Assembly: GCA_049303675.1 (NCBI GenBank)
Contig: JBAQNJ010000001.1
Span: 278,994 to 342,993, forward strand
DNA length: 64,000 nt
From: Microgenomates group bacterium
GTDB taxonomy: Bacteria; Patescibacteriota; Microgenomatia; UBA12405
Reading direction: 5' to 3'
Shown: in pieces, positions 15,435-56,816 of the stretch
How positions within the stretch are numbered: position 1 is the stretch's first letter
How the letters are laid out: each line of letters opens with the position of its first letter
The notes under the pieces: generated by a model
Database searches by the model: none
What the model saw: the letters and a program-made list of their open reading frames with translations, nothing else
Told to the model about the DNA's origin: nothing
Translations under genes and position numbers: made by a program

Positions 15435-15861
15435 ACTTTTTAATTTTATTAATTCTTCTGATATACCTCTCCTCAGATCCAAAAGTAGTTGCCAAAAACA
15501 GCGCCATAATCTTTTCGTTATCTTCCACACTTACCGAATCTGCCGACAAGCAAAGTACATTAATATCATCGTCATTTCGAGCCGCCCGCACTAGCTTCTC
15601 CGAAGTGCACAACCCAGCCCGTATTCCTTTGACCTTATTGGCCGCAATCGATGCACCAGCTCCTGAGCCACATACCAATATTCCCTTAACATTTTCCACC
15701 GCCACTTTTTCTGCCAGCTTTATGGCTATATCCGTATAATCATCATCTTTGTCGTACTCGGATGCTCCCAAATCCCTAAATTCATAATGTTCGGATTCCA
15801 ATATTTTTTTTAGTTCTTCCTTGAGTCTAAAGCCTCTATGATCGGCGCCAATATAAATCAT
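15415..15861 (-). CDS. rpiB: Ribose-5-phosphate isomerase B
   Basis: IGADHRGFRLKE and CGSGAGASIAANK motifs; 148 aa. Confidence 0.9.
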   Translation of the reverse strand: MIYIGADHRGFRLKEELKKILESEHYEFRDLGASEYDKDDDYTDIAIKLAEKVAVENVKGILVCGSGAGASIAANKVKGIRAGLCTSEKLVRAARNDDDINVLCLSADSVSVEDNEKIMALFLATTFGSEERYIRRINKIKKYETEIG

Positions 15862-22635: not shown

Positions 22636-23685
22636 GTGCAGATTTCTACCTTAATCCTCGAAAATTTTCGCTCTTACACACGACGTGAACTAAAACTTGA
22701 TTCAAAAACTAATTTAATTTTGGGACACAATGGTGCCGGCAAGACTAATATTTTAGAAGCTATTTATTTCCTGTCCTGTGGTAAAAGTTTTCGTAGTAGT
22801 TCCCTATCGCAATTAATCAATTGGAACAGTACTTACACTAGTGTTCAGGGTCAACTTGATGACCATACTCTCGAGGCTCAGCTAATCAAGAATGCTGCCA
22901 AAATGTCCCTTAGTCGTCAGTTCAAACTCGACCAAGTGATCAAAACTCGTCCCAAATATCTCGGCACTATGAAATGTGTTGTTTTTGAGCCAGAGGATAT
23001 TCGACTAGTTAATGGTTCACCCACCCGTCGTCGCGATTATCTCGATAGTGTTTTTGCTACCACCGAGTGGCGTTATGCTGGTGCCCTGTCCCAATTTCAC
23101 CGAGCTCTTAAGCATCGCAATGAATTGCTAGATCAAATCAGGGACGGCAAAAACCAAAAATCAGAGTTATTTTACTGGGATCAGTCTCTTATTAAAAACT
23201 CAGAAATAATTCACGATTTCCGGCAAAAATTTATACAATCAGTCAATCAATTTTTTCAGAACCATTCTTTCACCGAAATAAAAACTTTGTTTTTAACCTA
23301 CCACCCCTCAGTTCTGACTCAAGAAAAATTAGAACTCAATTATTTCCACGACCTCAATTCCGGATTTACCCAAGCAGGAATTCATCGTGACGATTTTACC
23401 TTCAATAATTCAATTTTCTCCACTGAAGACAAGAATTTAGCTTATTGGGGGAGTCGTGGTCAACAGAGACTAGCAGTCCTAGCTCTCAGACTTGCTCAAA
23501 TAAATTATCTAGAGGAAACCTATTCTCAAAAGCCAATTTTACTTCTCGACGATATTTTTTCCGAGCTCGATCCCGAGCATCGCCAGTTAGTTGTCAACAT
23601 CTGTCAAACGTACCAAACCATTTTTACCTCCGCCGAGGACAATATTTCTCACTTTTTACCTCAAGCTAACCAAATTAGTCTCTAA
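22636..23685 (+). CDS. recF: DNA replication and repair protein RecF
   Basis: LENFRSY...GHNGAGKTNILEAIYFL Walker A and LLLDDIFSELD Walker B. GTG start 5 nt after TGCTATAAT. Confidence 0.85.
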   Translation: MQISTLILENFRSYTRRELKLDSKTNLILGHNGAGKTNILEAIYFLSCGKSFRSSSLSQLINWNSTYTSVQGQLDDHTLEAQLIKNAAKMSLSRQFKLDQVIKTRPKYLGTMKCVVFEPEDIRLVNGSPTRRRDYLDSVFATTEWRYAGALSQFHRALKHRNELLDQIRDGKNQKSELFYWDQSLIKNSEIIHDFRQKFIQSVNQFFQNHSFTEIKTLFLTYHPSVLTQEKLELNYFHDLNSGFTQAGIHRDDFTFNNSIFSTEDKNLAYWGSRGQQRLAVLALRLAQINYLEETYSQKPILLLDDIFSELDPEHRQLVVNICQTYQTIFTSAEDNISHFLPQANQISL

Positions 23686-27313: not shown

Positions 27314-28249
27314 CTATATATTTATTTTCCACTTTGGCGGGTAAAAATACTTAATCAAATTGTTTGCTGGTTGATATCTCGTTTTTATTCGTACTCGATT
27401 ACTTACCAACTTTGGAAATTTTACTCGACAGTATTTATCAGTTTCACAAAACCATCCCTGACAATCAATCGCACTCATAGGCCTGCCTCCCAGATTTTTG
27501 AAATCAATTCCTAGTCTCCGAAATTCTTTTTCCTGATTTTCCACCATATATCGTATGATATCCTCATCACTCTTTCCAGATGTATTTACAAAACATTTGG
27601 CAATTCCTCTGAGTGCCCCAGGCCCAGCTACAGTAAAGTCATTTTCATCAAAATCAAATATTTCGGAATAATTAAAATCAATCGCCAACTGATACGCCAT
27701 AAAATTTCCCAGTAGAGGAAAACCTTTCAAACCTTCATACAATTTTTTCAAAGAATTTGCGCTCAAAATTAACTGTGTATTTTTCTTATTTCCAAAAATA
27801 AAATTCAACAAAGCTAGGTGATTTTCGTGTTTTTTATCAAAACCAAATATTTTGTTCGCACACAAAATAAATGCATTGCCGTATATTGGTTTATTTTCTT
27901 TTATCTTTTCTAATATTCTTGCGTATCTATCAGCACTAAAATTTTTTAGGCTAATTTCTCCCAGATCTAACTCTAACTGCTGCCATGTTTCAATTTTATT
28001 GAGTAGTCTAAATAACAAAATTCTAAAAAGAGTATCCTCTGCCGTAAATTTATCAGTGTAGATTACGTTTTTAATCAAAAATTGGGAAACTCTGTCACTT
28101 GCTCGGTAGACATTACAAAATTTATAACTTTGGTAAATTGGATCATCTGTCAAATGAACAGTTTTATTATTTAATTTACGAAAAAATATTTCTTGTCGCT
28201 CAGCTGCTGTTTTCCAATAGGTGTCATAAACTTTTTGCCGAACTCTCAT
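27314..28249 (-). CDS. Hypothetical protein; N-terminus resembles the aGPT-pyrophosphorylase / 5-hmdU-DNA-kinase helical family (DNA base hypermodification)
   Basis: The N-terminal pattern ...ERQEIFFRK......LTDDPIYQSYKFCNVYRASDRVSQFL matches my recollection of the R..I..R....WT.DPIL..YRFxNVxRExDRxT signature. The family assignment is not verified. Confidence 0.4.
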   Translation of the reverse strand: MRVRQKVYDTYWKTAAERQEIFFRKLNNKTVHLTDDPIYQSYKFCNVYRASDRVSQFLIKNVIYTDKFTAEDTLFRILLFRLLNKIETWQQLELDLGEISLKNFSADRYARILEKIKENKPIYGNAFILCANKIFGFDKKHENHLALLNFIFGNKKNTQLILSANSLKKLYEGLKGFPLLGNFMAYQLAIDFNYSEIFDFDENDFTVAGPGALRGIAKCFVNTSGKSDEDIIRYMVENQEKEFRRLGIDFKNLGGRPMSAIDCQGWFCETDKYCRVKFPKLVSNRVRIKTRYQPANNLIKYFYPPKWKINI

Positions 28250-31691: not shown

Positions 31692-32171
31692 TTGCTGGAA
31701 TTAGAGAAAAAATTGCCAAAAAACAATTTGCTAAATTATCAAATTGTTTATTTTCATCCCAAAACTTTTTTCAATAAATATATAAAAAGTTTTTGCACCC
31801 CTTCCCCCTTGTTAAAGGGGGATCGAGGGGGATTAATCATTGGTCTTGGCGATTTCTTTGGTGACATTACCAAAATCCGTCTCGAAACTATTACCCATAA
31901 TCAATATGCTCAAAACTCAATTTATCCATTTTCACCCATCAATTTAGATATTTCGCTGCCACCACTGGAAGATATTGACGAAAGAATCTTTACCGTTAGT
32001 GAACACATGGGCAAATACAATTGCAACTGGATTGTCTATTCTACCGAATTATATATCCGTCAACATGCCCCAGCCACAAAGCAATTATTTTTTCACCTGC
32101 CCCGTTCCCAAAATGCCACCATTTTAGCCTCTCAAATATACAATTTGCTCAATAATAATCAAATAATTTAG
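31692..32171 (+). CDS. Hypothetical protein (contains a REP-like repeat in frame)
   Basis: 159-aa ORF. The repeat is translated as SPLLKGDRGGL. Confidence 0.35.
   Translation: MLELEKKLPKNNLLNYQIVYFHPKTFFNKYIKSFCTPSPLLKGDRGGLIIGLGDFFGDITKIRLETITHNQYAQNSIYPFSPINLDISLPPLEDIDERIFTVSEHMGKYNCNWIVYSTELYIRQHAPATKQLFFHLPRSQNATILASQIYNLLNNNQII
31803..31834 (+). repeat. REP-like element, short form (copy A)
   Basis: TCCCCCTT-GTTA-AAGGGGGA-TCGA-GGGGGATT. Confidence 0.85.
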
Positions 32172-32175
32172 TGTT

Positions 32176-32218
32176 TTCCCCCTTTTCAAGGGGGAAGCGG
32201 CGTAGCCGAGGGGGTTTT
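32176..32218 (+). repeat. REP-like element, long two-hairpin form (copy B)
   Basis: TTCCCCCTTTTCAAGGGGGAAGCGGCGTAGCCGAGGGGGTTTT. It abuts the TGTTATAAT promoter of 32235. Confidence 0.9.
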
Positions 32219-32234
32219 GATGTTATAATTAACC

Positions 32235-32942
32235 ATGCCTCGAATCAAAGATGTTGATAATGTCGCTCCTGACGATTTAATTACTTCCCCAAAAACTAAT
32301 TTAACTATAAATACAAATCCAATTATAAAATCACCCAACAAGTTGGTCGATACAGAGACTTTAAACGACAAGGTTTACTCAATTTTTGGTCACACCAAGT
32401 CCTCATTTTCCTCTGCCCTAGTTTTCCCTCATGTCTTTAGTTTTGCCGAGCAGGACGACGATGAAAAAATTCTCGTCGCTATGCGTCCCCATTGGTTCAC
32501 CAATGTTTCTTGGATTTTCACCTCTATTTTTTTATTTCTCCTTCCTAGCCTAATCCATTTTGTTCCCCTTATCAACACCCTCCCGTGGAACTACCAGTTT
32601 GTCATTACCCTCTCTTGGTATCTAATCGCCATTGCCTACACTTTCGAGAAATTTATGGGCTGGTATTTCGATGTCTATATTATTACTGACCGTCGGGTCA
32701 TTGACATCGACTTTATCAATCTCCTTACCAAAAAATACGCCGAAGCAGATATATCCAAGATACAAGATGTCTCCTCGAAGGTTTCTGGTGTTAGCCAGAC
32801 ATTCTTCAATTATGGCTCAGTTCTCATCCAGACCGCCTCCGAAGTCAATGAATTGCACTTTGACAAAGTTGCCAATCCCGAAAAAATTGTCAAAATATTA
32901 CAGGAATTAGGCGAGTTAGAAGAATCCAAACACCATGAATAA
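32235..32942 (+). CDS. Membrane protein, possible bacterial PH (YdbT-like) domain
   Basis: Two central TM helices followed by DRRVIDIDF....ADISKIQDVS....SVLIQTA. This is a weak domain call. Confidence 0.4.
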   Translation: MPRIKDVDNVAPDDLITSPKTNLTINTNPIIKSPNKLVDTETLNDKVYSIFGHTKSSFSSALVFPHVFSFAEQDDDEKILVAMRPHWFTNVSWIFTSIFLFLLPSLIHFVPLINTLPWNYQFVITLSWYLIAIAYTFEKFMGWYFDVYIITDRRVIDIDFINLLTKKYAEADISKIQDVSSKVSGVSQTFFNYGSVLIQTASEVNELHFDKVANPEKIVKILQELGELEESKHHE

Positions 32943-33150
32943 TCTCAATCTCTATTTTTTACTGGCCCAAAAATTTTCTTTTGTTCTCGGTTCTATTATT
33001 TATCTTGTTTTTGCCCTAATTGTGGTGAAGCAAACTACTATGATGAGTAAAAACGTTATCGACAAATTCAATCCTGTTCTGATCTCCATTGCCTATCTCC
33101 ACCTCGCCTTTTCCATATTTCTCGTCTTCCTTACTTTAGTAATACTCTAA
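32935..33150 (+). CDS. Hypothetical small membrane protein
   Basis: 71 aa with two hydrophobic helices. Overlaps the upstream stop by 8 nt. Confidence 0.35.
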   Translation: MNNLNLYFLLAQKFSFVLGSIIYLVFALIVVKQTTMMSKNVIDKFNPVLISIAYLHLAFSIFLVFLTLVIL

Positions 33151-33188
33151 CAAAGATTATCCCCCTCTTTCGTCAATATAGTTTGTAC

Positions 33189-33234
33189 TTCTCCCTTTTT
33201 CAAGGGGAGATGCGGCGAAGCCGAGAGGGGTTTT
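33189..33234 (+). repeat. REP-like element, long form (copy C)
   Basis: TTCTCCCTTTTTCAAGGGGAGATGCGGCGAAGCCGAGAGGGGTTTT. It abuts the promoter/ATG of 33250. Confidence 0.9.
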
Positions 33235-33249
33235 GTAGTATCATTAATC

Positions 33250-35052
33250 ATGCACTTTATTTGTCGATCTTTCCTCGGTCAAGCACAGCCCAATTCTTGG
33301 TCTCAGTATTGGGAGAACGAACCAGAGGATCAGGCTCTCGCTGCCAATCGTGGCCATCTTTTTGCCCTGCTCAATCTTGTCGTTGATCAAAATATCCCCA
33401 CTAGCGATATCGGTCATCGGCTTATCAATGAACTCAATCAACAATATTTTTCTTCATCCCTTGATCCAATTCCCGTTTCACTGACGCAGGCTATCCAGAC
33501 AGTTGTCAATCAACCAGCCTACAACTTACTCGACATTTCTCTGACTATCGCCATTATTCACCAGTCCCAGCTCTATCTGGCTATGTACAACTCCGGTTAT
33601 GTTTTTCTCGTTCGCCAGCATCAGTTCTCTCAGCTTCTTAGCGGCACCACCTCGAAGGTCAATCTCGTCTCTGGCCTGATTGCCCCCGATGACATTATCT
33701 TTATTTGCACTCAAAATTTTTATGACAATGCTACCCTAAATGGTATCAAGAGTTACCTGTCATTAGGCAAAACAGAAGACATTGAGGAGAGCATTATGGC
33801 CGACATTTACACTTTTACCGAGCAGGCCACCCTCGCTTCCCTCCTCATCGGAATTCACCCCGATGTCGATACCCCTTCCCCTCTTCCTGACAGCCCCGAG
33901 CCTAGTTCTCCCCCAGTTTCTGAGGTTATTTCTCCTCCCGATGTCTACATTTCCCACCTCGACTCTACCGCCATCAAAAATCGTCGTTATTTCAACATCA
34001 TTATTGCCATCATTTTGATTTTAGCCCTGTCTGTCAGTGTTTTCTTTGGCAATCAGCGTAATCAAAAAAATAATTTACAAACCAAATATCAGACCCTCAA
34101 ATCAGCCTATCAGGCCAAAATGAGTAGTGCTCTAGCCACCAAAAATATCAATCTCGAAGAGGCCCAGAAGATTGCTGCCGAGGCCAAAAGTATCGCCCTC
34201 GAATTGCAGTCTCTCAAGATAAATTCAGCCGAATCATCCCAGTTATTAGCTGATGCCCTCAATATACTGTCCCAAACTGGTTCTGCCGACAGTTACTCAC
34301 CCCAAGACTACTACGACACCACCGATCTCAACTCTGCTGCGAATTATTCTCATCTTATTTCTGCCAAAAACTTTTTATATCTCCTCGATCAGACTTCAGG
34401 TCGTCTCGACCGCCTCGATCTAGCCGCCAAAAGCAAACAAAAAATTATCCAAAATGATCAACTAAAAAATGCCACCGATATCGCCGAAAATAATGGTCAA
34501 CTCTACCTCCTCATCGACAAAAAAATCTATCAAGTTAGTGGCACTTCCCTTAATTCAGTTATTGATATTCCCACCGACATTCCCGACTTCACCTCCGGCA
34601 AAATCCACTTTTGGAACAGTAGTCTCTATCTTCTTGGCACCAACATTTGGAAATTCACCCCCTCAGGCACCTCCTTTTCTCAGGCCCAAGTCTGGCTCAA
34701 GGATGGCAACAATTTACCACCCACTAGTTCCTCATTGGCCATCAATGGCCAAGTTTGGGTCTTAGCCAAGTCAGGGGATCTTTCCTCCTACACTCGGGGT
34801 ACCCGCGATGCCACCCCGCCCCATATTGCCACCAATTTATCAGCCGCCGATCACTTAGTTGTTTCTCTTGACTCAGAAATTATTTCCTTTGTCGATGGCA
34901 GTTCCGTTGTTTATATTTATCACAAATCTACCGCATCCGCCTCCAAATACAATTTTGGCAATCGTCAGATTCTTAGTACCGCTCTCGATTCTACTAACAA
35001 TCGTCTTTTAGTTCTCTGTGCCGACAAAAAAATCTACCAAATTAAATTATAG
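33250..35052 (+). CDS. Hypothetical single-pass membrane protein (globular N-domain, Pro-rich linker, TM, coiled coil, repeat-rich C-domain)
   Basis: 600 aa. PSPLPDSPEPSSPPVSEVISPP linker and TM segment YFNIIIAIILILALSVSVFF. No family recognised. Confidence 0.45.
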   Translation: MHFICRSFLGQAQPNSWSQYWENEPEDQALAANRGHLFALLNLVVDQNIPTSDIGHRLINELNQQYFSSSLDPIPVSLTQAIQTVVNQPAYNLLDISLTIAIIHQSQLYLAMYNSGYVFLVRQHQFSQLLSGTTSKVNLVSGLIAPDDIIFICTQNFYDNATLNGIKSYLSLGKTEDIEESIMADIYTFTEQATLASLLIGIHPDVDTPSPLPDSPEPSSPPVSEVISPPDVYISHLDSTAIKNRRYFNIIIAIILILALSVSVFFGNQRNQKNNLQTKYQTLKSAYQAKMSSALATKNINLEEAQKIAAEAKSIALELQSLKINSAESSQLLADALNILSQTGSADSYSPQDYYDTTDLNSAANYSHLISAKNFLYLLDQTSGRLDRLDLAAKSKQKIIQNDQLKNATDIAENNGQLYLLIDKKIYQVSGTSLNSVIDIPTDIPDFTSGKIHFWNSSLYLLGTNIWKFTPSGTSFSQAQVWLKDGNNLPPTSSSLAINGQVWVLAKSGDLSSYTRGTRDATPPHIATNLSAADHLVVSLDSEIISFVDGSSVVYIYHKSTASASKYNFGNRQILSTALDSTNNRLLVLCADKKIYQIKL

Positions 35053-35071
35053 TAGTTTTTTTGTACAACTT

Positions 35072-35080
35072 TGATATAAT
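35072..35080 (+). promoter_or_regulatory. Extended -10 promoter TGATATAAT of a leaderless gene
   Basis: TGATATAAT-TTGATT-ATG. The identical 18-mer occurs on the minus strand at 40074-40057. Confidence 0.6.
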
Positions 35081-35086
35081 TTGATT

Positions 35087-35575
35087 ATGCCAGTTGATAA
35101 AACCCATCGAGAAATATTAGACCATGCCATCAACATTGCCTATCAAAACGCCACCAAATTCACTGCTCGCCAGCCAAATAGTGACTTCGCTACCACCTCT
35201 GCAGAAATAGATAGTTCTCGGGGTAAAGCCCATTTGTCAATTGGTGTCACTCGAACACAGCAAGGGCTAGATACCGAAGTCAGTCTTCAGCCAGCAGGTA
35301 GTGGTAAAGGCAATGACTGGAGCTATCGACTTGTATCCCAAACCGTCTGGCCAGATATCTACGGTCAACTAGTTGGAACTATGGACCATTACCCAGAAAC
35401 ACAAGGCATGACTGCCTCAGAAGCATTGGAAGTTTTACAGAAGACCTCACCCATAGAAATATCTTTTCCAAGGCGAGAACAACATTCATCTGAGGAAATC
35501 AGCTTTTTTCTACTGAGGGGAGATGGCAGAAGTGTGATTGACGATCTAGCTCGAATGGTCCGACCCCGTCGATAA
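35087..35575 (+). CDS. Hypothetical protein
   Basis: Start moved from TTG 35081 to ATG 35087, 6 nt after the -10 box. Confidence 0.4.
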   Translation: MPVDKTHREILDHAINIAYQNATKFTARQPNSDFATTSAEIDSSRGKAHLSIGVTRTQQGLDTEVSLQPAGSGKGNDWSYRLVSQTVWPDIYGQLVGTMDHYPETQGMTASEALEVLQKTSPIEISFPRREQHSSEEISFFLLRGDGRSVIDDLARMVRPRR

Positions 35576-35577
35576 AA

Positions 35578-36006
35578 TTATCGTTTTTTTCTATCCAATA
35601 TTACGTCAATATATCCCGTTTTCACCCCTTCTGCTTGAGGTCTGCCCACGCCCATCATCAAAAAATACATTTTTTCTTCGCTTGCCGGCATGTCTTTTAT
35701 CCAAGCATCAGTTTTAGACATCGGTTCGATTATTTGCAAGTGGCCCACACACCTACTATCAGGATTTTCTCCTCTAGGTGTCAAATAAGTTATATTTTTT
35801 AGTGCTCGAAGTTGTTCTAGCGTCAAGCCTTCCTCTTCCCCTAACATAGTTTCAAAATTTTTTTGAGTATGTTCGGCAATTTCTTTATGAAAATCACTTG
35901 CCCTAGGTATTAGTATGAGTGCAAAAATATCCTTATTGACTGCATCCATCATTTGGGCTGAAGCTTTCAATTTCTTATAATACTCTCTAAATTTCTCGTC
36001 ATCCAT
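35578..36006 (-). CDS. Hypothetical protein
   Basis: 142 aa. TGATATAAT + 6 nt + ATG. Confidence 0.4.
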   Translation of the reverse strand: MDDEKFREYYKKLKASAQMMDAVNKDIFALILIPRASDFHKEIAEHTQKNFETMLGEEEGLTLEQLRALKNITYLTPRGENPDSRCVGHLQIIEPMSKTDAWIKDMPASEEKMYFLMMGVGRPQAEGVKTGYIDVILDRKKR

Positions 36007-36046
36007 ATCATTATTATATCAATAAAGCCCATAATATACAATGTTT

Positions 36047-36089
36047 TTCTCCCTTGTCATAGGGAGAAGCGGCTGTGCCGAGAGGGATT
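36047..36089 (+). repeat. REP-like element, long form (copy D)
   Basis: TTCTCCCTTGTCATAGGGAGAAGCGGCTGTGCCGAGAGGGATT. Confidence 0.9.
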
Positions 36090-36155
36090 GAAATATGAGA
36101 TAATCACTTAGTTTGTTTTATTCATAAATCATATTTCTTATTTCATACACCAACT

Positions 36156-36566
36156 ATGAGGTACTTCAATCGAGATTCACTCGACTACGAGTTCAAAGAC
36201 AAGTACGAAGCAGGCCTCGTCCTCACTGGTTCTGATGCCAAATCTCTCCGGACTCAGGGAGTCCTCTTCAATGGCTCCAAAATCGAGATAATTGATGGTA
36301 TTCCTACAGTTTTCAATCTGACTATCGAGCCCTACAAGTATTCCCAAAACCAATCGATCGACACCACTCGGGAACGAAAAATCTTATTATCGCAGAGGGA
36401 AATAGCCAAGTTAATTAGTCTCCGCAATCAAAAATATATGATCATCCCCATCAGTATATTTTTGAAGCACAATTGGTTCAAAATGGAAATTGGTGTCGGC
36501 CGCAAGCTCCGCAAATACGAAAAAAGAGAAAAAATCAAAGCCAAGGATTCTCTACGTCACTCCTAA
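36156..36566 (+). CDS. smpB: SsrA-binding protein SmpB
   Basis: EFKDKYEAGLVLTGSDAKSLR...RERKILLSQREIAKL...GRKLRKYEKREKIK matches the SmpB pattern. Confidence 0.85.
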   Translation: MRYFNRDSLDYEFKDKYEAGLVLTGSDAKSLRTQGVLFNGSKIEIIDGIPTVFNLTIEPYKYSQNQSIDTTRERKILLSQREIAKLISLRNQKYMIIPISIFLKHNWFKMEIGVGRKLRKYEKREKIKAKDSLRHS

Positions 36567-39243: not shown

Positions 39244-39247
39244 CGCA

Positions 39248-39678
39248 GGAGGAGATGCTCGGTATTGAGCCGAGGTCCAAAGTGGACTATAAAAAACGTC
39301 TACAAGCTTAATTTACTTTATCCTACACTTTCAACAACTAAAGTAAACGAAAAGTGTTGAAATGTCGATTATTGAGGGCATTACCCCTCTCTTAAATCCA
39401 CGATCTAATCGAGAAGATCGGGACAGCATTCTAGTTTAATTTACACTAGCTAGTCTTCTCTAGAAAAGGGGACTAACTAATGGATGATTCTGTTTAGGCA
39501 AGAGCCCAAACAGGAGCCTTAGAAGCTAGAGCGCCTTTTACAGCGTTTGCAACTTTGGTTAAATCAACACCAAAAGTATTTTTGGCATGTTTGTTTTTGA
39601 CCCTGTTTAACGACTCAATGGATCAAAGTCGGCTTGCGGTTTTTTAAGGTACTCACCTTGTCGATGCAATACATCTCC
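39248..39678 (-). ncRNA. ssrA: tmRNA (SsrA), one-piece
   Basis: Minus strand. 5' GGAGATGTATTGCATCGACAAGG (compare E. coli GGGGCTGATTCTGGATTCGACGGG). 3' GGAC-CTCGG-CTCAATA-CCGAG-CATCTCC-TCC is a T-arm plus acceptor. Tag ORF GTT-GCAAACGCT... (resume codon 39550-39548, stop 39496-39494) encodes ANAVKGALASKAPVWALA. smpB lies 2.7 kb away. Confidence 0.75.
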
Positions 39679-46417: not shown

Positions 46418-46455
46418 TTTCCCCTCTTTGCTCAAAGAGGGGCTAGGGGTGATTT
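46418..46455 (+). repeat. REP-like element, variant short form (copy E)
   Basis: TTTCCCCTCTTTG-CT-CAAAGAGGGG-CTA-GGGGTGATTT. Confidence 0.7.
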
Positions 46456-46490: not shown

Positions 46491-46497
46491 TCTTAGA

Positions 46498-46565
46498 GTG
46501 TTTAGAAGACCCTTAGGGGTTGACAACCGAGTCCGCCAAATGGTCCACGGTGCCCACTAAAACAC
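46498..46565 (+). promoter_or_regulatory. Structured metK 5' leader, candidate SAM-I/IV-like riboswitch
   Basis: Closing helix GTGTTTAG...CTAAAACAC encloses ACCC-TTA-GGGT, GACAACC, CCG...CGG and GGTGCCC (compare the SAM-I/IV core GGCAACC...GGUGCC). Followed by CCTT...AAGG around the SD. Confidence 0.35.
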
Positions 46566-46589
46566 GCCTTATCAATTAAAAGGAAAAAT

Positions 46590-47690
46590 ATGAATTATCC
46601 TCAATTTTCGTCCGAATCTGTCTGTGAAGGTCACCCCGACAAAGTCTGTGACCAAATTAGTGATGCTATCTTAGACGCTGCCTATACCCTCGACCCTATG
46701 GCTCGGGTCGCTATCGAGACTTTGGCTACGGTCAACAAATTAGTTTTAGCCGGAGAAGTTACTATTAATGGTACTCTCGATTATGCCGCTATTGCCCGCC
46801 AAAAGATCGCCGAGCTCGATTTTCTCGATTCAGTTTTAGATTTTACCGACAAATGCGACATCGAAATTGCTGTCCACACACAGTCACCCGATATTGCTCA
46901 GGGCGTCAATGCTGGTGGAGCCGGTGATCAGGGGATGATGTTTGGTTATGCTTGTCGCGAGACACCCGAACTAATGCCCCTTCCCATTTCCATGGCTCAC
47001 AAATTATGCCGTCAAATGGACGAATTACAGCGCATTCATCGTTGGATGCGCCCCGATGGCAAGTCTCAGGTTACCGTTCGTTATGATGGTCAGACTCCGG
47101 TAGCCATCGAGCGAGTTGTCTTGGCCAAGCCCATGAATTACGACCTCGCCCCTGCTGATTATTCTCACTTTTTCTATCAAAATGTCATTGTTCCAGTCTT
47201 AGCTGAATACAAGTTTGAAATCAGTGAAGACAAAATGATTCTCAATGGTACCGGTAAATGGACCATTGGTGGCCCCTCCGCCGATACTGGCGTTACTGGC
47301 CGCAAAATTGTCGTTGATACTTACGGTGGTATGGGTCGTATTGGTGGTGGTTGCTTTTCCGGCAAGGATACTACCAAGGTCGATCGCAGTGCCGCCTACG
47401 CCGCTCGCTATATTGCCAAAAATATTGTGGCTGCAGGTCTCGCCGATCGCTGCGAGGTTCAATTAGCCTATGCTATTGGTCAAGTCCTGCCTGTTGGTCA
47501 ATCTATTGAGACTTTTGGCACTGCCAAGTCAGAATTAAAGGTAATCGAAGATTTTGCATGGAAATTACTCGAATTATCGGTCGCTGGTATCAACAGTGGT
47601 CTCAATCTCCGCGTGCCAATGTATGCCAAAACCGCCCGCTATGGCCACTTTGGCCATCCCGAGTATCCATGGGAGAAGATAAAAGGCTAA
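46590..47690 (+). CDS. metK: S-adenosylmethionine synthetase
   Basis: SESVCEGHPDKVCDQISDAILDA, GAGDQGMMFGYA and DTYGG motifs. Confidence 0.95.
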   Translation: MNYPQFSSESVCEGHPDKVCDQISDAILDAAYTLDPMARVAIETLATVNKLVLAGEVTINGTLDYAAIARQKIAELDFLDSVLDFTDKCDIEIAVHTQSPDIAQGVNAGGAGDQGMMFGYACRETPELMPLPISMAHKLCRQMDELQRIHRWMRPDGKSQVTVRYDGQTPVAIERVVLAKPMNYDLAPADYSHFFYQNVIVPVLAEYKFEISEDKMILNGTGKWTIGGPSADTGVTGRKIVVDTYGGMGRIGGGCFSGKDTTKVDRSAAYAARYIAKNIVAAGLADRCEVQLAYAIGQVLPVGQSIETFGTAKSELKVIEDFAWKLLELSVAGINSGLNLRVPMYAKTARYGHFGHPEYPWEKIKG

Positions 47691-48436: not shown

Positions 48437-50217
48437 TGAATAATAATCTATATAAAAATAGTACTTTCCCCCTTTTTCAAGGGGGGATTAAGGGGGGTTT
48501 TGTATTAAAAACTTTTTTTTACTTTTTACTTTTTACTTTTGTTTTTATTTTAATTTTTACTCTCCCTCTTATTTTCGGTTTTGGCAAAACCGGCAAAAAC
48601 ACTCTTGTTTTAGGCAAAGACTATTCCTTACTCTCCAAATCCCAAATAATTTCTCGCTTATCAGTCGATTTTCCTCTTCCTCCCAGCCTGAATATTCAGA
48701 CCTCAAACCGCAAATTTACTCTCAATTTAGCCGATATCTCCGCCCAATACGACTATCCCTCAATCGCATCCAATCTACTATTCCGTCGACTTCATAGTGG
48801 AGTTTTACCTTATTTTAAGGCATTTTTTCAGCCAAAAAACTTTAGCCTTAGTCTCGATTACAGCTCCGATTCACTCGATAAACAAATTGCCAATATCTCC
48901 CAGCAGGTCGATCATCCCTTTGTTCCCTCCCAATTTAGTCTCGATGAGAAATCCAAAGAAATCATCCTCAAAAACGGTGAACGGGGGCAAAGAGTCAATT
49001 CTGAAGAATTGAAAAACCGTCTCGTCTCTGCTCTTCGTTATTATGAGGCATCTACCCCTATCGACCTTCCCCTCGACCCTATTGGTGAGTTGCCCACTAC
49101 TGATCAAATTAGTAGTGCCACCGCTGTCGCTCAGTCCCTTATCGGCAAGAAGCTCGAATTTTCCGCCCCCGACGAGGTTGTCACCCTCGACGACAAGACC
49201 CTTATTTCTTGGGTCGACTTTGGGACCATTTGTCGCCGCTCCACAGTTGATGATTATGTCGCTGGACTGAAGTCTAGTCTGAAAAAGGATCCTGTCGAAG
49301 CCGTCTTCAAATTTGAAAATGGTCAAGTCCTCGAATTTCAACCATCTAAAAATGGTTATCTATTAGATGACTCCAATTTAAGCCAACAAATTTGTTCAAA
49401 AATAGTTGAACTATCCCAATCCTCGGACAAAATAATTAAGGATAAATTCCCAGTTATCACCCTCGAAACCAAGACTCAAAACTCTGATGTCAACAATTTA
49501 GGCATCAAAGAATTAATTGGCAGTGGCACCTCTACCTTCCGTCACAGTAGTACTATTCGCAATATCAATGTCGAGCGCGGCGCCCAAATAGTCAATCGCA
49601 TTTTAGTCGCCCCAGGCGAAAAGTTTTCCTTTGTCAAAGCTCTTGGCGATGTCACCATCGAAAATGGTTTCAAAATGGCTTATGTCATTCGGGCCGGCAA
49701 GACGGAATTAGACGTTGGTGGTGGTATCTGTCAGGTCTCCACCACTTTTTTCCGCGCCCTTCTCAATTCTGGGCTCGATATAATTGACAGACGCAACCAC
49801 GCCTATCGAGTCCAATACTATGAAGAAGACATGCCCCCAGGTTATGACGCCACTGTTTTTATCCCCAGTCCTGATTTATCTTTTGTCAACGACACTGGCC
49901 ATCATATCCTTATTCAAAGTAAATATGATGGTAAAAATAAACGGCTTACCTACGATCTTTATGGTACCTCCGATGGTCGATCTGTCGATATTAGCAACTA
50001 TCGCCAATGGGGAGCTGCTCCTGCTCCTCCGGCGGTCTATATTGACGATCCTACCTTACCGGCGGGCAAAGTCGTTCAGGACGAGCACGCTATTCCAGGA
50101 CTGAAGACATCTTTTGACTGGAAAGTGACCCGAGCCGGAGAGATAATCCATCAGAAAACCTTTACCAGCAATTTCGTCCCTTGGGCCGCCGTTTTCCGTC
50201 GCGGACCGCAAATTTAA
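48436..50217 (+). CDS. VanW family protein
   Basis: GGGICQVSTTFFRALLNSGL and RNHAYRVQYY VanW core; N-terminal TM anchor. Confidence 0.8.
   Translation: MNNNLYKNSTFPLFQGGIKGGFVLKTFFYFLLFTFVFILIFTLPLIFGFGKTGKNTLVLGKDYSLLSKSQIISRLSVDFPLPPSLNIQTSNRKFTLNLADISAQYDYPSIASNLLFRRLHSGVLPYFKAFFQPKNFSLSLDYSSDSLDKQIANISQQVDHPFVPSQFSLDEKSKEIILKNGERGQRVNSEELKNRLVSALRYYEASTPIDLPLDPIGELPTTDQISSATAVAQSLIGKKLEFSAPDEVVTLDDKTLISWVDFGTICRRSTVDDYVAGLKSSLKKDPVEAVFKFENGQVLEFQPSKNGYLLDDSNLSQQICSKIVELSQSSDKIIKDKFPVITLETKTQNSDVNNLGIKELIGSGTSTFRHSSTIRNINVERGAQIVNRILVAPGEKFSFVKALGDVTIENGFKMAYVIRAGKTELDVGGGICQVSTTFFRALLNSGLDIIDRRNHAYRVQYYEEDMPPGYDATVFIPSPDLSFVNDTGHHILIQSKYDGKNKRLTYDLYGTSDGRSVDISNYRQWGAAPAPPAVYIDDPTLPAGKVVQDEHAIPGLKTSFDWKVTRAGEIIHQKTFTSNFVPWAAVFRRGPQI
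48465..48501 (+). repeat. REP-like element, short form (copy F)
   Basis: TTTCCCCCTTTTTCAAGGGGGGATTAAGGGGGGTTTT. Translated as FPLFQGGIKGGF in the VanW N-terminus. Confidence 0.85.
48516..48536 (+). repeat. Tandem heptamer (TTTTTAC)x3
   Basis: Read directly. Encodes FYFLLFTF, the same peptide as at 29563-29597. Confidence 0.9.
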
Positions 50218-51089: not shown

Positions 51090-51737
51090 CTATATTCTAT
51101 GTTCAGGATTGCTCTGCATTTTTCCTTTCGCCAGCCAGGGGCTGGGTCTCTTTGATCCTTTTTTATAACACTCTTTCAATTCTGTCACCAGTTCAGGTAT
51201 AAATTGCAAGTCAATTTTCTCCACTATATTTAGAGTATTAAACCAAATCATTTCCCAGCCATCATGGGCATATCCTAGGTATTTCCATTCCTGCATTTCC
51301 AGTAGGTACGCCGTCCAATCGGCCGCTTTTATTACTAGCTTTTCTCTTTCATTCAATTCTTCACCATACTTTGATGTGTCCATCTCTTCCGATATCGATG
51401 ACATCATTTCTTTATACGCCTTCTCTCCCGCCTTACTTGCCTCTTCTTTTATATTTATCTCCCAAAAACTGGCATAACTCGGACTTCCTGAGGGTATGTC
51501 TCCAATTACAATTTCCCGCCAATCATGGGTCATTGCATATCTCATCACTTTGTCAAAACTTATTTCTGGTTCGCCTAGTTTATCGACAAATAGCATGGCA
51601 AGGTAGCCCACCATATACGAATGTTCGGCAATCGATATATTCATACTCGTGGGCAGCCCCAAGGCCAAGTTCCCTCCAGTTCTTTTAATCCTATTTAAGT
51701 TTTGTAAATTTTGTACCAGTTCAAATATTTTTTTCAT
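51090..51737 (-). CDS. HD-domain phosphohydrolase (YfbR-like)
   Basis: RIKRTGG......SIAEHSYMVGYLA....HDWREIVIGDIP is the HD signature. Confidence 0.7.
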   Translation of the reverse strand: MKKIFELVQNLQNLNRIKRTGGNLALGLPTSMNISIAEHSYMVGYLAMLFVDKLGEPEISFDKVMRYAMTHDWREIVIGDIPSGSPSYASFWEINIKEEASKAGEKAYKEMMSSISEEMDTSKYGEELNEREKLVIKAADWTAYLLEMQEWKYLGYAHDGWEMIWFNTLNIVEKIDLQFIPELVTELKECYKKGSKRPSPWLAKGKMQSNPEHRI

Positions 51738-51751
51738 GACGAATTATAACT

Positions 51752-51782
51752 TTTTTGTAGGGGCGACGCTAGCCGTCGCCCT
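51752..51782 (+). repeat. GC-palindrome element, copy 1 (TTTTTGTAGGGGCG...GTCGCCCT)
   Basis: GGGCGACG-CTAGC-CGTCGCCC hairpin overlapping the tsaD stop. Shares its ends with 52345-52377. Confidence 0.7.
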
Positions 51783-52884
51783 AAAAGTTTAATCGTGGAT
51801 CACGGTCCAGAGTCTCGGGATCCGACCATTCTTTTCGCTTCGCCAATTCCCAGCCCACTCTTCCAATCATGGCCGCATTATCGGTATTTAGCCATATTTT
51901 CGCTGGCATATAAATTAGCAATTTCTTTTTTCTGGCTAGGGCTCTCAGTTTTTTTCGAAGCATCATATTGGCCAGTACCCCTCCCGAGGCCATTATAGTT
52001 TTTGGCTCATATTTATCAATCGCCAAATCAAATTTTCTAATCAAAGTATTGAATACCGACTCTTGAAATGTTGCCGCCAGACTAGCCAAATTTTTATTTT
52101 TTTCCTCTATTGACCAGTCTTTTATTTTATAATAAAAACTAGTTTTCAGTCCCGAAAAGCTATAGTCCAACACTTTTTTATCGGCGAGCGGTTTGGGTAA
52201 TTCAAACAAATTATTATTGGCGCCAGCTTGCATCGCCAGTCGCTCTATCACCGGCCCCCCAGGGTATCCCAAACCCAGTAATTTTGCCGCCTTATCCAAC
52301 GCTTCTCCCGCCGCATCATCCAACGTTTCCCCCACTACAGTATATTTTTGTAAGGGCGTACCCTTGTGGTCGCCCTTTTCCAAAAGTACAATCTTCGTAT
52401 GTCCTCCACTTACCGTCAGGCAAATAGCTGGCAGCTCTATCTCTCTCTCTGGCAATCCTTTACTATTTTTGACGAGGTTAGACAATATATGTCCCTCCAC
52501 ATGATTCACCGCCACCAATTTTTTATTATATTTTATCGCCAATTCACAGGCAGTTTTCACCCCTACTCCTAGAGCAATCGCCAGCCCCGGCCCTTTCGTC
52601 ACTGCAATTACATCAACAGACTTCATGTAATATTCCAATGTCTTTCTCTCCCTTGTCAAAGGGAGATGCCCCGAAGGGGAGAGGGATTGAGAACGTTTCA
52701 ATGCCGTCATTATCACCGGCAAAATTCTCGCTTGATGTGCTCTTTTCGCAATATCCGGTACCACCCCACCCCAATCTTTATGCAAATCAGTTTGCGAGGA
52801 AATTACATTACTTATCACTCGATCATTTTCCAGCACTGCCGCACAGGTATCATCACAGCTGGTTTCAATCGCCAATATTTTCAT
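51781..52884 (-). CDS. tsaD: tRNA N6-adenosine threonylcarbamoyltransferase TsaD
   Basis: ILAIETSCDDTCAAV, NHVEGH, SGGHT and DDAAGEALDK motifs. Carries two repeat-derived in-frame insertions. Confidence 0.92.
   Translation of the reverse strand: MKILAIETSCDDTCAAVLENDRVISNVISSQTDLHKDWGGVVPDIAKRAHQARILPVIMTALKRSQSLSPSGHLPLTRERKTLEYYMKSVDVIAVTKGPGLAIALGVGVKTACELAIKYNKKLVAVNHVEGHILSNLVKNSKGLPEREIELPAICLTVSGGHTKIVLLEKGDHKGTPLQKYTVVGETLDDAAGEALDKAAKLLGLGYPGGPVIERLAMQAGANNNLFELPKPLADKKVLDYSFSGLKTSFYYKIKDWSIEEKNKNLASLAATFQESVFNTLIRKFDLAIDKYEPKTIMASGGVLANMMLRKKLRALARKKKLLIYMPAKIWLNTDNAAMIGRVGWELAKRKEWSDPETLDRDPRLNF
52345..52377 (+). repeat. GC-palindrome element, copy 2 (inside tsaD)
   Basis: TTTTTGTAAGGGCGTACCCTTGTGGTCGCCCT. 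Translated on the minus strand as KGDHKGTPLQK. Confidence 0.7.
52643..52688 (+). repeat. REP-like element, long form (copy G, inside tsaD)
   Basis: TTTCTCTCCCTTGTCAAAGGGAGATGCCCCGAAGGGGAGAGGGATT. The second hairpin is CCCC-GAA-GGGG instead of CGGC-GTA-GCCG. Translated on the minus strand as QSLSPSGHLPLTRERK. Confidence 0.9.
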
Positions 52885-54159: not shown

Positions 54160-54191
54160 TCCCCCTTGTTAAAGGGGGATTTAGGTGGATT
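54160..54191 (+). repeat. REP-like element, short form (copy H)
   Basis: TCCCCCTTGTTAAAGGGGGATTTAGGTGGATT, 18 nt upstream of the lemA ATG. Confidence 0.85.
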
Positions 54192-54208
54192 AGGTGTTAT
54201 TATAAAGT

Positions 54209-54769
54209 ATGAACAAAACACTTATCTCTATTGTTGCCATTCTTGTTTTTCTCGGTCTGGTTCTCGCCGGAGTCTACAACAATCTTATCTCTCTAAATCA
54301 AAAAGTTGACCTTGCTTGGGCTCAGGTTGATACTCAGTATCAGCGTCGTTTTGACCTCATTCCCAATTTAGTCTCATCAGTCCAAGGCGAGATGAAACAG
54401 GAGCAGAAAATATTCTCCGACATTGCTACCGCTCGGACTCAATATTCCGGTGCTGCCTCGGTCAATGACAAAGCCACTGCCGCCACAGCCTTAGAGGGGA
54501 CTTTGGGCAGATTATTAGTTATTATGGAAAATTATCCCGTTCTAAAATCCAACGAAAATGTCACTCGACTTATGGATGAATTGGCTGGTACCGAAAATCG
54601 TATCAGTGTCGAGCGCTCTCGTTTCAACAATCAGGTTACTACCTACAACATGGTAGTAATTCGATTCCCTGGCAATCTTCTCGCTCGACTTTTTGGCTTT
54701 AGTTCACGAGCATTTTTTCAAAGTGCCAGTGGCGCCGATGTTGCCCCACGAGTGGAAATTAATCCCTAA
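54209..54769 (+). CDS. lemA: LemA family protein
   Basis: N-terminal TM plus YNNLISLNQKVDLAWAQVDTQYQRRFDLIPNLV. Confidence 0.9.
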   Translation: MNKTLISIVAILVFLGLVLAGVYNNLISLNQKVDLAWAQVDTQYQRRFDLIPNLVSSVQGEMKQEQKIFSDIATARTQYSGAASVNDKATAATALEGTLGRLLVIMENYPVLKSNENVTRLMDELAGTENRISVERSRFNNQVTTYNMVVIRFPGNLLARLFGFSSRAFFQSASGADVAPRVEINP

Positions 54770-55727: not shown

Positions 55728-56816
55728 TCAAAAATTTATCTCCCGTGTCGTCTCATCCACATAGCTAAAATTAATCGGTATATAGTTAGTTATTTTTTTT
55801 AATTTATTTAGGTATTCTTCACCCATATTTTCCGGCCACTCAATACAGGCAACTAGCTCTGAGCTTGTCGAAGGGAATTGTTCCAAAAATTTTATTTCCT
55901 CAAATTCATATTTATTTCCCAATCTATACAAATCAAAATGTAAAAATTTCTTGCACTGATAACTGTTCACTGATAACTGTTCACTGATTAAATATTCATT
56001 ATAAATTACAAACGTCGGGCTAGTTATTTTTTCCTTTACCCCGAGTAGTTGTCCTATCTTTCGGGAAAATACAGTCTTTCCACAACCTAGGTCTCCGCTC
56101 AATCCAAACACTAGAGGTTTTCTCTCCCTTGTTAAAGGGAGAAGCGGCGTAGCCGAGAGGGATTTGTTCAACAAAAATTCAGCAATTTTCTCCGTTTCCT
56201 TTTCCGATTTAGAAATTAGTGTTTGGGATTTCCCCACTATCAAGTCTCCCCGTCTGAGGATTTTTATCTCCGGTTCAGTGGCGTCAATTACTGTCGATGG
56301 TTTGTTCCGTGGTAATTTACCACTGTCCACCATCATATCGATCATCATCAATTTTTTCTGGGACAGAGTTTTTACAAAGCTTGCCAGTGAATAGTGGGGA
56401 GTCCGTCCCGACAGATTCGCTGACGTCGCCGTCACTGGCCCTCCCACCGCCTTCACCAGATCCATTATCCATTGGTTATCCGGTATTCGTATTCCCAATG
56501 TCCCATTTTCCGCCTCTATACCCTTGGCCACCTTATGTTTGCCCTCCGACACAATCGTAAAAGGTCCGGGTAGCAAGTTTGCATAAATATTTTCTGCATT
56601 TTCACTCAGTTTTACAAAATCTTGTGCCATTTTTTTATCTGCTACAGCTATCGATATCGCCTTCCCCGTCCATCTGTTTTTAAATGCGAGAAGTTTATCT
56701 GTTGCGCTCTGGCTTCTCGGATCTACCGCCAAAATGTACACCGTATCACTCGGGAATATTACTAGCCCACCATCTTTTATTATTCTGGCCGCCTTTTCAA
56801 TATCCTCGACTTTCAT
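55728..56816 (-). CDS. Fusion of a Sua5/YrdC (TsaC) domain and TsaE
   Basis: N-terminal half: FPSDTVYILAVD, LPGPFT, TATSANLSG, STVID, ILRRG (YrdC fold). C-terminal half: GDLGCGKTVFSRKIG, SPTF, HFDLYRL, IEWPE (TsaE). Confidence 0.8.
   Translation of the reverse strand: MKVEDIEKAARIIKDGGLVIFPSDTVYILAVDPRSQSATDKLLAFKNRWTGKAISIAVADKKMAQDFVKLSENAENIYANLLPGPFTIVSEGKHKVAKGIEAENGTLGIRIPDNQWIMDLVKAVGGPVTATSANLSGRTPHYSLASFVKTLSQKKLMMIDMMVDSGKLPRNKPSTVIDATEPEIKILRRGDLIVGKSQTLISKSEKETEKIAEFLLNKSLSATPLLPLTRERKPLVFGLSGDLGCGKTVFSRKIGQLLGVKEKITSPTFVIYNEYLISEQLSVNSYQCKKFLHFDLYRLGNKYEFEEIKFLEQFPSTSSELVACIEWPENMGEEYLNKLKKITNYIPINFSYVDETTREINF
55955..55989 (+). repeat. Tandem heptamer array ACTGATA ACTGTTC ACTGATA ACTGTTC ACTGATT
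   Basis: Read directly. Lies inside the TsaE module, translated as ISEQLSVNSYQ. Confidence 0.85.
56118..56165 (+). repeat. REP-like element, long form (copy I, inside the TsaE module)
   Basis: TTTCTCTCCCTTGTTAAAGGGAGAAGCGGCGTAGCCGAGAGGGATTT. Translated on the minus strand as SLSATPLLPLTRERKP just before the P-loop strand. Confidence 0.9.

Follow-up and report, generated by a model that had tools for sequence, protein, structure and literature searches.

In-frame hairpin repeats at two insertion sites of the tRNA-modification enzyme TsaD in a Microgenomates-type clade

Introduction

In-frame palindromic repeats in conserved genes are already known in the form of Rickettsia palindromic elements (RPEs) and of intragenic repetitive extragenic palindromes (REPs) (PMC10969869, PMC3733652). 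According to PMC10969869, which summarises Ogata et al. 2000, RPEs are palindromic elements of approximately 100-150 bp that are inserted in frame in Rickettsia genes. For REPs of the GTAG and CGTC classes, Di Nocera et al. 2013 (PMC3733652) described intragenic copies as well as REP ends that supply stop codons, occasional in-frame copies in genes including those for tRNA modification and tRNA synthetases, and different REPs at about one recB site in two Xanthomonas species. The criteria of the GTAG-REP superfamily given there include a dispersed multicopy family and an association with a REP-associated tyrosine transposase (RAYT, Y1 transposase). [quoted passage not shown] Here we describe two short hairpin repeats, a two-hairpin element termed D1 and a REP-like palindrome, that lie in frame within the tsaD gene of a Microgenomates group bacterium. 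The gene is situated in a stretch of 64,000 nt (positions 278,994 to 342,993 of contig JBAQNJ010000001.1, assembly GCA_049303675.1), hereafter referred to as the window, and all positions are given relative to its first nucleotide.

TsaD is the transferase subunit for t6A (N6-threonylcarbamoyladenosine), a modification of tRNA, and a universally essential enzyme. Short GC-rich palindromes in coding sequence also occur in the AT-rich mitochondrial genome of Magnusiomyces, where these "byp" elements are skipped by the ribosome and are not required to keep the frame. Unlike byps, every insert seen in this study is in frame and stop-free. In the literature searched, no report of REP, MITE, or RPE-like elements in the candidate phyla radiation (CPR)/Patescibacteria was found. 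What is unusual here is the combination of clade-wide hotspots at two sites with a stacking of elements in an essential enzyme.

Results and Discussion

Repeat Copies in the tsaD Gene

The product of tsaD (Table 1) scores 331.6 bits against the TIGR03723 equivalog model (cutoff 296.1), and in a search of solved structures TsaD chains were the best matches (E ~3e-63). Compared to Thermotoga TsaD it contains three extra segments, i.e., 16 aa after helix alpha1, 6 aa at residues 139-144, and 6 aa before YTVVGE. The gain at residues 139-144 is common to the whole clade and unrelated to repeats, whereas the other two segments are repeat-encoded: positions 52643-52688 encode residues 66-81 (QSLSPSGHLPLTRERK) from the strand opposite to the repeat, and positions 52345-52377 encode residues 170-180 (KGDHKGTPLQK). 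The initial annotation had proposed that two extra segments of about 16 and 7 residues derive from a dispersed repeat and from a GC-rich palindrome, respectively, whose ends recur just past the tsaD stop codon. Translation, repeat search, and orthologue alignment confirmed both segments and their positions; the first matches the D1 profile, the second forms a stable hairpin, and the ends of the latter are indeed common to both palindrome copies. Both inserts are in frame and are read, as claimed, on the strand opposite to the orientation of all copies in the window. The size of the first had to be revised, since the net gain relative to insert-free orthologues amounts to approximately 18 aa at site 1 (26 versus 8) and, in agreement with the proposal, to 7 aa at site 2 (16 versus 9). 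If the inserts are translated, peptides such as SLSPSGHLPLTR or GDHKGTPLQK would be made.

Table 1: Repeat copies, host genes, and further features of the window.
Feature	Position	Strand	Remarks
tsaD	51781-52884	minus	367 aa, intact open reading frame (ORF)
Insert 1, D1 copy in tsaD	52639-52691	plus (antisense to tsaD)	nhmmer profile, E 1.8e-14
Insert 2, GTAG-type REP-like palindrome	52345-52377	plus	TTTTT-GTAA-GGGCGtAC-ccttgtg-GTCGCCC-TT
Second REP copy (post-stop)	51752-51782	plus	TTTTT-GTAG (51757-51760)-GGGCGACG-ctagc-CGTCGCCC (51774-51781)
TATAAT box	51743-51748	minus	3 nt past poly-A end of REP, 5 nt before ATG at 51737; consensus match only
YfbR-like HD gene	51090-51737	minus	downstream of tsaD
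Intergenic D1	32169-32220	plus	starts at stop codon of upstream ORF; followed by TGTTATAAT and ATG
Intergenic D1	33185-33235	plus	upstream of gene 33250-35052 (plus)
Intergenic D1	36041-36092	plus	between divergent genes 35578-36006 (minus) and smpB
D1 in TsaC-TsaE fusion gene	56116-56167	plus	E 2.2e-16
TsaC(Sua5)-TsaE fusion gene	55728-56816	minus	~3 kb from tsaD
Short single-hairpin D1 relative (D5)	31802-31835	plus	TCCCCCTT-gtta-AAGGGGGA, then AGGGGGATTA
Short D5-type copy	48462-48500	plus	annotated 5' end of VanW-domain gene; probably upstream of true start
Short D5-type copy	54160-54192	plus	upstream of lemA (54209-54769, plus)
Phosphoglycerate kinase gene	14376-15530	minus	
RecF gene	22636-23685	plus	
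ORF with PF18723 match	27314-28249	minus	
smpB	36156-36566	plus	
tmRNA gene	39247-39678	minus	
7-bp GC hairpin	46421-46442		
SAM-I/IV riboswitch match	46493-46599		
metK	46590-47690		

The gene looks functional, since both histidines of the HxxxH metal site (H128 and H132) and the aspartate of the TDN motif (D335) are present in the TsaD of the window and invariant across 120 orthologues. In a phmmer alignment these residues coincide with the histidines of the HVEAH motif and the TDN aspartate of T. maritima TsaD; the two metal histidines are numbered His109/His113 in PMC6009658.

The D1 copy in tsaD belongs to a 46-nt direct-repeat family with starts at 32172, 33187, 36044, 52643, and 56119, next to which a shorter related family (D5) was found. 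When the window was scanned with a profile built from these five full copies, eight copies were recovered, all on the plus strand: the five themselves (E 2e-16 to 2e-13) plus three of shorter length (31802, 48462, and 54160). D1 is an element of approximately 50 nt composed of stem-loop SL1 (TCTCCCTT-gtca-AAGGGAGA), stem-loop SL2 (CGGC-gta-GCCG, replaced by CCCC-gaa-GGGG in the tsaD copy), and the tail AGAGGGATT. Three full copies are intergenic, and two of the three short D5-type copies coincide with the 5' end of a predicted ORF, whose true start is probably located further downstream; the D1 copies in tsaD and tsaC-tsaE, in contrast, are read in frame and contain no stop codon. At least 10 of 13 D1 copies from the window and related genomes fold separately as two adjacent hairpins despite different arms, and pairing is kept in all SL2 arm pairs seen (CGGC/GCCG, CCCC/GGGG, CTCCGGC/GCCGGAG, and GCCC/GGGC). 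Copies were folded one by one, and a count of pair covariation on the D1 alignment was abandoned, due to the fact that the two stems of several copies are displaced by one register and fixed alignment columns would miscount the pairs. No Rfam covariance model reached its gathering score at any repeat copy, and a relaxed search of positions 31700-36200 gave chance-level matches only (E 2.4 and 3.8). With its two hairpins and the AGAGGGATT tail, D1 fits neither the GTAG nor the CGTC tag class. As further candidates, an intein or intron was ruled out by the shortness of the inserts (21 and 54 nt) and a CRISPR array by the dispersed occurrence of the copies without regular spacing.

The palindrome of insert 2 folds with -16.4 kcal/mol (z = -4.8 versus shuffled sequences). 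The other copy (z = -4.0 versus shuffled) extends into the stop codon of tsaD (TAG, 51783-51781), the G of which is part of the last base pair of the hairpin. The common ends AGGGCGAC...CGCCCYTACAAAAA match twice in the window and not once in 100 shuffles; this count is not an independent test, since both copies had served to define the pattern. In size (approximately 28 nt), stem, and loop the palindrome is within the range of GTAG REPs, which span 20-40 bp and have stems of 5-13 bp and a short loop: the post-stop copy has an 8-bp stem and a 5-nt loop, the in-gene copy a 7-bp stem with one bulge or, alternatively, a 7-bp stem with a 12-nt loop. Orthologues P0028 and P0009 contain related, identically oriented REPs at the site of insert 2 (GTAT-GGGCAGA-tccctgtg-TCTGCCC and GTAT-GGGCAGAC-cggtgt-GTCTGCCC), with arms that differ and still pair, and the corresponding peptide of P0113 is EEGRTHRSAPT. 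P0009 (L093:925-2055) additionally harbors a third REP site between RIAAQ and LLKLP, encoding KEQTHRSVPT and reading GTAG-GAACAGAC-ctgtgt-GTCTGTTC on the antisense strand.

Similar to the GTAG REPs of PMC3733652, these palindromes are short GC-rich stem-loops with an unpaired GTAG at one end (post-stop copy) and compensating changes in the stem; the post-stop copy is also placed right after a stop codon to which the REP end contributes. The tag is GTAG in the post-stop copy and in the third-site copy of L093; it reads GTAA in the in-gene copy and GTAT in the two relatives at this site (L092 and L093), neither of which is among the variants in PMC3733652. Further differences are the number of copies (two in 64 kb) and the lack of a RAYT gene in the window, and CPR are not among the phyla listed for GTAG REPs (PMC3733652).

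Insertion Sites among TsaD Orthologues

A protein search yielded orthologues that are 58-78% identical and 340-424 aa in length, and both sites were measured in an alignment of the best 120. At the first site (ALKR to DVIAVT), the canonical length of 8 aa was observed in 34 of 120 orthologues, while the others have 17-41 aa (up to 33 extra residues). At the second (SGGHTK to Y-x-VVGE), the canonical 9 aa occur in 45 of 120 and the others reach 12-70 aa (up to 61 extra). The two sites are clade-wide insertion hotspots. Recurring insert peptides are SLSxSPxLPLTRE, NPPLTPPLRKGG, NPSALRAAPLDKGA, TPSLTRGG, LPLTGQG, GQTQGSAHT, and AT-rich FLISNFQFLKNK; D1-type, GTAG-REP-type (GQTQGSAHT, GQTHRSAHT), PPFDKGG/APLDKGA-type, and AT-rich FLISNFQF-type families occur at each site. 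Both hotspots as well as read-through C-terminal tails contain the same peptide families, and hotspot 2 of P0076 contains four repeat-like peptide motifs in tandem.

As far as RPEs are described in the summary of PMC10969869, the repeats resemble them in being dispersed palindromes located both between genes and in frame within conserved housekeeping genes of a small-genome bacterium, where they are translated as an extra peptide at fold-compatible positions. In contrast to the defined Rickettsia families of approximately 100-150 bp, the elements described here are approximately 28 and 50 nt long, a comparison made by description only. A further difference from the RPEs of that summary is that here two loops of one protein have been hit repeatedly by several families, throughout a clade and with tandem stacking.

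The closest insert-free orthologues (P0005, P0006, and P0024; 76-78% identical) have short canonical loops. Out-group sequences were taken from at least 80 loci, most of them from distant phyla, that were found by scanning genome contigs with the TsaD alignment. Canonical lengths at both sites were observed in Roizmanbacteria, two of three Saccharibacteria, Paceibacterota, Bacteroidota, and Solirubrobacterales; thus, the filled state is derived. In the third metagenome-assembled genome (MAG) of the Saccharibacteria (L052:1078-2175), hotspot 1 carries an unrelated insert of approximately 40 aa that is rich in lysine and glutamate, and this site may hence be permissive in other CPR lineages, too. 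In a neighbor-joining tree (320 core columns, no bootstrap) the insert states form a mosaic among near neighbors, and the neighbors of the window TsaD are either empty (P0005, P0013) or contain other element types (P0002, P0003, P0004).

Repeats are classic sites of misassembly, and in some yeast mitochondria the ribosome bypasses GC-rich palindromic inserts in coding regions. The inserts might therefore be missing from the real genome, as chimeras, or from the mature product, following translational bypassing or splicing. The DNA, however, is identical in two assemblies: a segment of 2467 nt occurs without a mismatch in MAG contig JBAQFH010000001.1 of NCBI and in the Logan assembly of SRR28062869. 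Contigs of many independent metagenomes contain homologous inserts at these sites, and features of an intron or intein are impossible in 21-54 nt. Moreover, all inserts are in frame and stop-free, which would be needless under bypassing, although the protein database comprises intact ORFs only. The inserts in tsaD are not an assembly artefact, and this explanation as a whole, removal from the product included, is hardly credible.

Comparison of Related Loci at the DNA Level

The tsaD loci of nine orthologues were retrieved and compared in a codon-aware alignment. L001 and L004 are insert-free and display the same synteny of tsaD and the HD gene as the window. In the window, L002, L008, and L009, hotspot 1 is occupied by D1 in one orientation and at the identical codon position (after K/Q-S), but with different SL2 arms (CCCC/GGGG, CGGC/GCCG, and CTCCGGC/GCCGGAG), and hotspot 2 of L002, L007, and L009 contains related two-hairpin elements. 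The DNA of the element is far more conserved than that of its host gene: D1 at hotspot 1 is 88% identical between the window and L002 or L008 and 98% identical between L002 and L008, whereas the tsaD core of these three is 68-71% identical, with third codon positions (0.47-0.49) that are effectively saturated. Among the hosts, L002 and L009 are most closely related (84% aa identity), yet their elements are more different. Additional D1 copies were detected in the loci of L002, L007, L008, and L009, whose tsaD is D1-filled, and of L011-L013; a D1 search of L001, L004, and L006, with an insert-free or AT-type tsaD, gave no copy. This pattern is in agreement with elements that were repeatedly acquired or replaced from a conserved pool of repeats, or with homogenisation by other copies.

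It has to be considered whether the loops might instead be old, i.e., gained once in the ancestor of the clade, inherited vertically, precisely lost in some lineages, and repeat-like by composition only. The single codon position of the D1-type sequence in the window, L002, L008, and L009 would be in agreement with such a history, and so would a segment (xxLExYMKx or EKIIEEGMKEI) that most hotspot-1 inserts share downstream and that is missing from insert-free genes. Nevertheless, it is very unlikely. Canonical lengths are found in out-group TsaD and, within the group, in 34 (site 1) and 45 (site 2) of 120 orthologues, and insert 1 matches intergenic copies (nhmmer E ~1e-14). An element identity of 88-98% next to approximately 48% at third positions is incompatible with neutral drift since the common ancestor; thus, the inserts are not old, freely drifting loops. 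The more divergent elements of the closely related hosts L002 and L009 point in the same direction.

Structure of the Insert Loops

An AlphaFold2 model of the window TsaD was computed from the 120-sequence alignment (mean predicted local distance difference test (pLDDT) 88.1, predicted TM-score (pTM) 0.88). With Foldseek, its core was superimposed on TsaD of E. coli, Salmonella, and Aquifex with target-normalised TM-scores of 0.88-0.90. Low means of pLDDT over ten-residue blocks are restricted to residues 31-40 (60), 71-80 (58), and 171-180 (61). In the model, insert 1 forms a coil between helix 43-67 and a short helix (83-87) ahead of strand 92-97, and insert 2 the tip of a hairpin of strands 163-170 and 179-187. 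Both sites are thus predicted low-confidence loops outside the core and compatible with the fold.

[quoted passage not shown] From this we infer that insert 1 is located at the C-terminal end of alpha1 and insert 2 in the beta7-beta8 hairpin, at the end of beta7 far from the SGGHT loop. Judged by this single-protein model, both would therefore sit away from the contacts to TsaB, TsaE, and the nucleotide.

Orientation, Folding, and Promoter-Like Sites

All eight D1 copies and both REPs of the window share one orientation. The D1 copies in the tsaD-oriented loci of L002 and L007-L009 as well as those in L011 and L013 are all antisense to tsaD; L012 contains two weak matches in the opposite orientation. 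In its own orientation D1 RNA folds with -24.3 kcal/mol (z = -2.2) using G-U pairs, while on the sense strand of tsaD the value of -16.4 kcal/mol (z = -0.34) is no better than that of shuffled sequences. Both strand-specific spread, as in single-strand transposition, and selection against stable hairpins in mRNA would fit the shared orientation. The plus strand of the window has a strongly and uniformly negative GC skew (-0.11 to -0.32) and a negative AT skew as well.

A hairpin repeat with a TATAAT-like box within a few bases and an ATG 5-8 nt further on was observed at 32169-32235, 33185-33250, 54160-54209, and 51743-51760. As judged from these motifs, the arrangement suggests a stop-codon/hairpin/promoter layout with near-leaderless transcripts.

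In the SL1 loop of D1, the sequence TTGACA is present on the opposite strand, which for the in-gene copy is the sense strand of tsaD. A promoter scan around tsaD returned 6 promoter-like sites versus 5.6 expected from shuffles, with no two-hexamer match at the in-gene D1 copy. In the region of the D1 cluster 21 sites were found versus 9.6 expected, only three of which coincide with D1 copies, each on the minus strand. Neither the promoter nor the terminator scans supported the idea that the in-gene copies act as a promoter or an intrinsic terminator.

The TsaC-TsaE Fusion Gene as a Second Host

The D1 copy in the TsaC-TsaE fusion gene is read in the same frame as that in tsaD (KSLSATPLLPLTRERK) and lies directly before the TsaE P-loop (GLSGDLGCGKT), so that the phenomenon is not specific to TsaD. 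Orthologues of the fusion protein vary at this site and at a second one in TsaE (NEY...KKFLHFD); at the latter, L009 contains the repeat-type peptides NPPLTNSKSPSASPHPPLTKGGY.

Two t6A genes at a distance of 3 kb carry one element with identical frame and orientation, and this element might have been co-opted. The D1 peptide (SLSxxxxLPLTRERK) in TsaD and in the TsaE part, or the RNA or DNA hairpin, would then have a selected role, e.g., in complex assembly, in coupled regulation of t6A genes, or as an internal promoter provided by the TTGACA loop. The conservation of D1 among genomes with saturated synonymous sites, its occurrence at the orthologous site in at least four genomes (window, L002, L008, and L009), and the single orientation of all copies are arguments for such a role. 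It is weakened by the many orthologues without insert, the closest ones included, by unrelated elements at identical sites, and by the fact that the peptide changes with the hairpin arms and that L009 switches the frame inside the element, so that the constraint follows the palindrome and not the peptide. The weak fold on the sense strand, the lack of a two-hexamer promoter match at the in-gene copy, and the low pLDDT at both inserts argue in the same direction, and we regard co-option as rather unlikely.

It is tempting to speculate that D1 is a conserved strand-specific element that is kept in t6A genes of Microgenomates-type bacteria, either as a shared handle, consisting of peptide or nucleic acid, that couples assembly or expression of TsaBDE or as a homing-type element that targets these loops. 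Its positions in the t6A proteins, at a loop of TsaD that leads from helix to strand and immediately ahead of the TsaE P-loop, are what such a proposal would build on; we consider it improbable.

Origin and Survival of the In-Gene Copies

The likely explanation, in our opinion, is that of REP/RPE-like repeats that are selfish or mobile and persist within genes only if a preserved frame, the lack of stop codons, and a permissive loop coincide, giving rise to loops that are tolerated and not used. The tsaD frame contains copies of two unrelated families of short GC-rich hairpin repeats, which would be translated with it. D1 and the REPs would be selfish elements, mobile or spread by recombination, with their usual home between a stop codon and the next promoter. 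Copies within a gene would be retained only if their length keeps the frame, the frame is stop-free, and the site is a structurally permissive loop. Hotspot 1, in the loop after helix alpha1 and before strand beta4, and hotspot 2, at the tip of the beta7-beta8 hairpin, presumably provide these conditions, due to which different elements would have accumulated there repeatedly across the Microgenomates-type clade. The extra residues would be floppy surface loops that TsaD tolerates. Mobility, the selective filter, and neutrality are the parts of this explanation that we infer.

The initial annotation had left it at an enzyme that "tolerates, or exploits" its inserts. Tolerance is in agreement with our results, whereas no result obtained here supports exploitation. 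Two outcomes that would have contradicted the annotation did not occur: ancestral loops unrelated to the repeats were excluded by the orthologue alignment, given the short canonical loops of the closest insert-free orthologues and out-groups, and a chimeric assembly was not borne out. The suggested mapping onto a structural model did place both inserts in low-confidence loops.

Several points weigh against selfish repeats as the explanation. Two of the eight D1 copies are situated in two t6A-pathway genes and encode nearly identical peptides, which could be more than chance, and the identity of 88-98% across deeply diverged genomes could also be expected from functional constraint. Neither a target-site duplication nor a clean empty/filled junction was definable in the codon alignment, as empty and filled genes are only 76-78% identical at the aa level, and the alignment shows no duplicated sequence next to the inserts. 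The repeats resemble MITEs as small non-autonomous elements sometimes located within ORFs and adding peptide; the defining features of MITEs, terminal inverted repeats and a duplication of the target site, could not be demonstrated here. Presence and absence of inserts were compared between genomes of different species only. The protein database holds intact ORFs only, and thus the observation that inserts are always in frame is partly built in. Finally, no transposase or Y1 (RAYT/IS200) domain was detected in the 63 ORFs of at least 100 aa (E <= 1e-5) of the window, which represents approximately 6% of a contig of about 1 Mb (998 kb).

Other Features of the Window

In case of two further housekeeping proteins, the alignments to their domain models are interrupted or extended: the Pfam match of phosphoglycerate kinase falls into two separate stretches, and 330 residues of RecF correspond to approximately 195 model positions. 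These values hint at internal insertions in other housekeeping proteins as well. The tmRNA gene comprises 432 nt compared to a model of 374 positions; smpB is located 3 kb from it, with an intergenic D1 copy directly upstream. The match to an S-adenosylmethionine (SAM-I/IV) riboswitch, with exactly the gathering score (41.1 bits), lies directly ahead of metK, and the 7-bp GC hairpin is situated just upstream of it. One ORF has a full-length match (326 bits) to the helical domain of 5-hmdU DNA kinase (PF18723). This domain is known from phage pathways of DNA hypermodification and is unexpected in a small CPR-type genome.

Conclusions

In-frame colonisation by repeats, for which the RPEs of Rickettsia and a small number of proteobacteria rich in REPs are the best-known examples, is widespread in a lineage of the CPR, where it affects a universally essential enzyme. 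The two loops of TsaD, which take up between 0 and approximately 60 extra residues over 120 orthologues, represent a natural mutagenesis experiment, and such permissive loops would be usable for tagging or engineering of TsaD/Kae1/Qri7. For CPR genomics it follows as a caveat that length differences between orthologues can be repeat-derived and may mislead alignments, phylogenies, and domain calls. Very small genomes that apparently lack transposases would still spread or retain hairpin repeats, by a mechanism that can now be studied.

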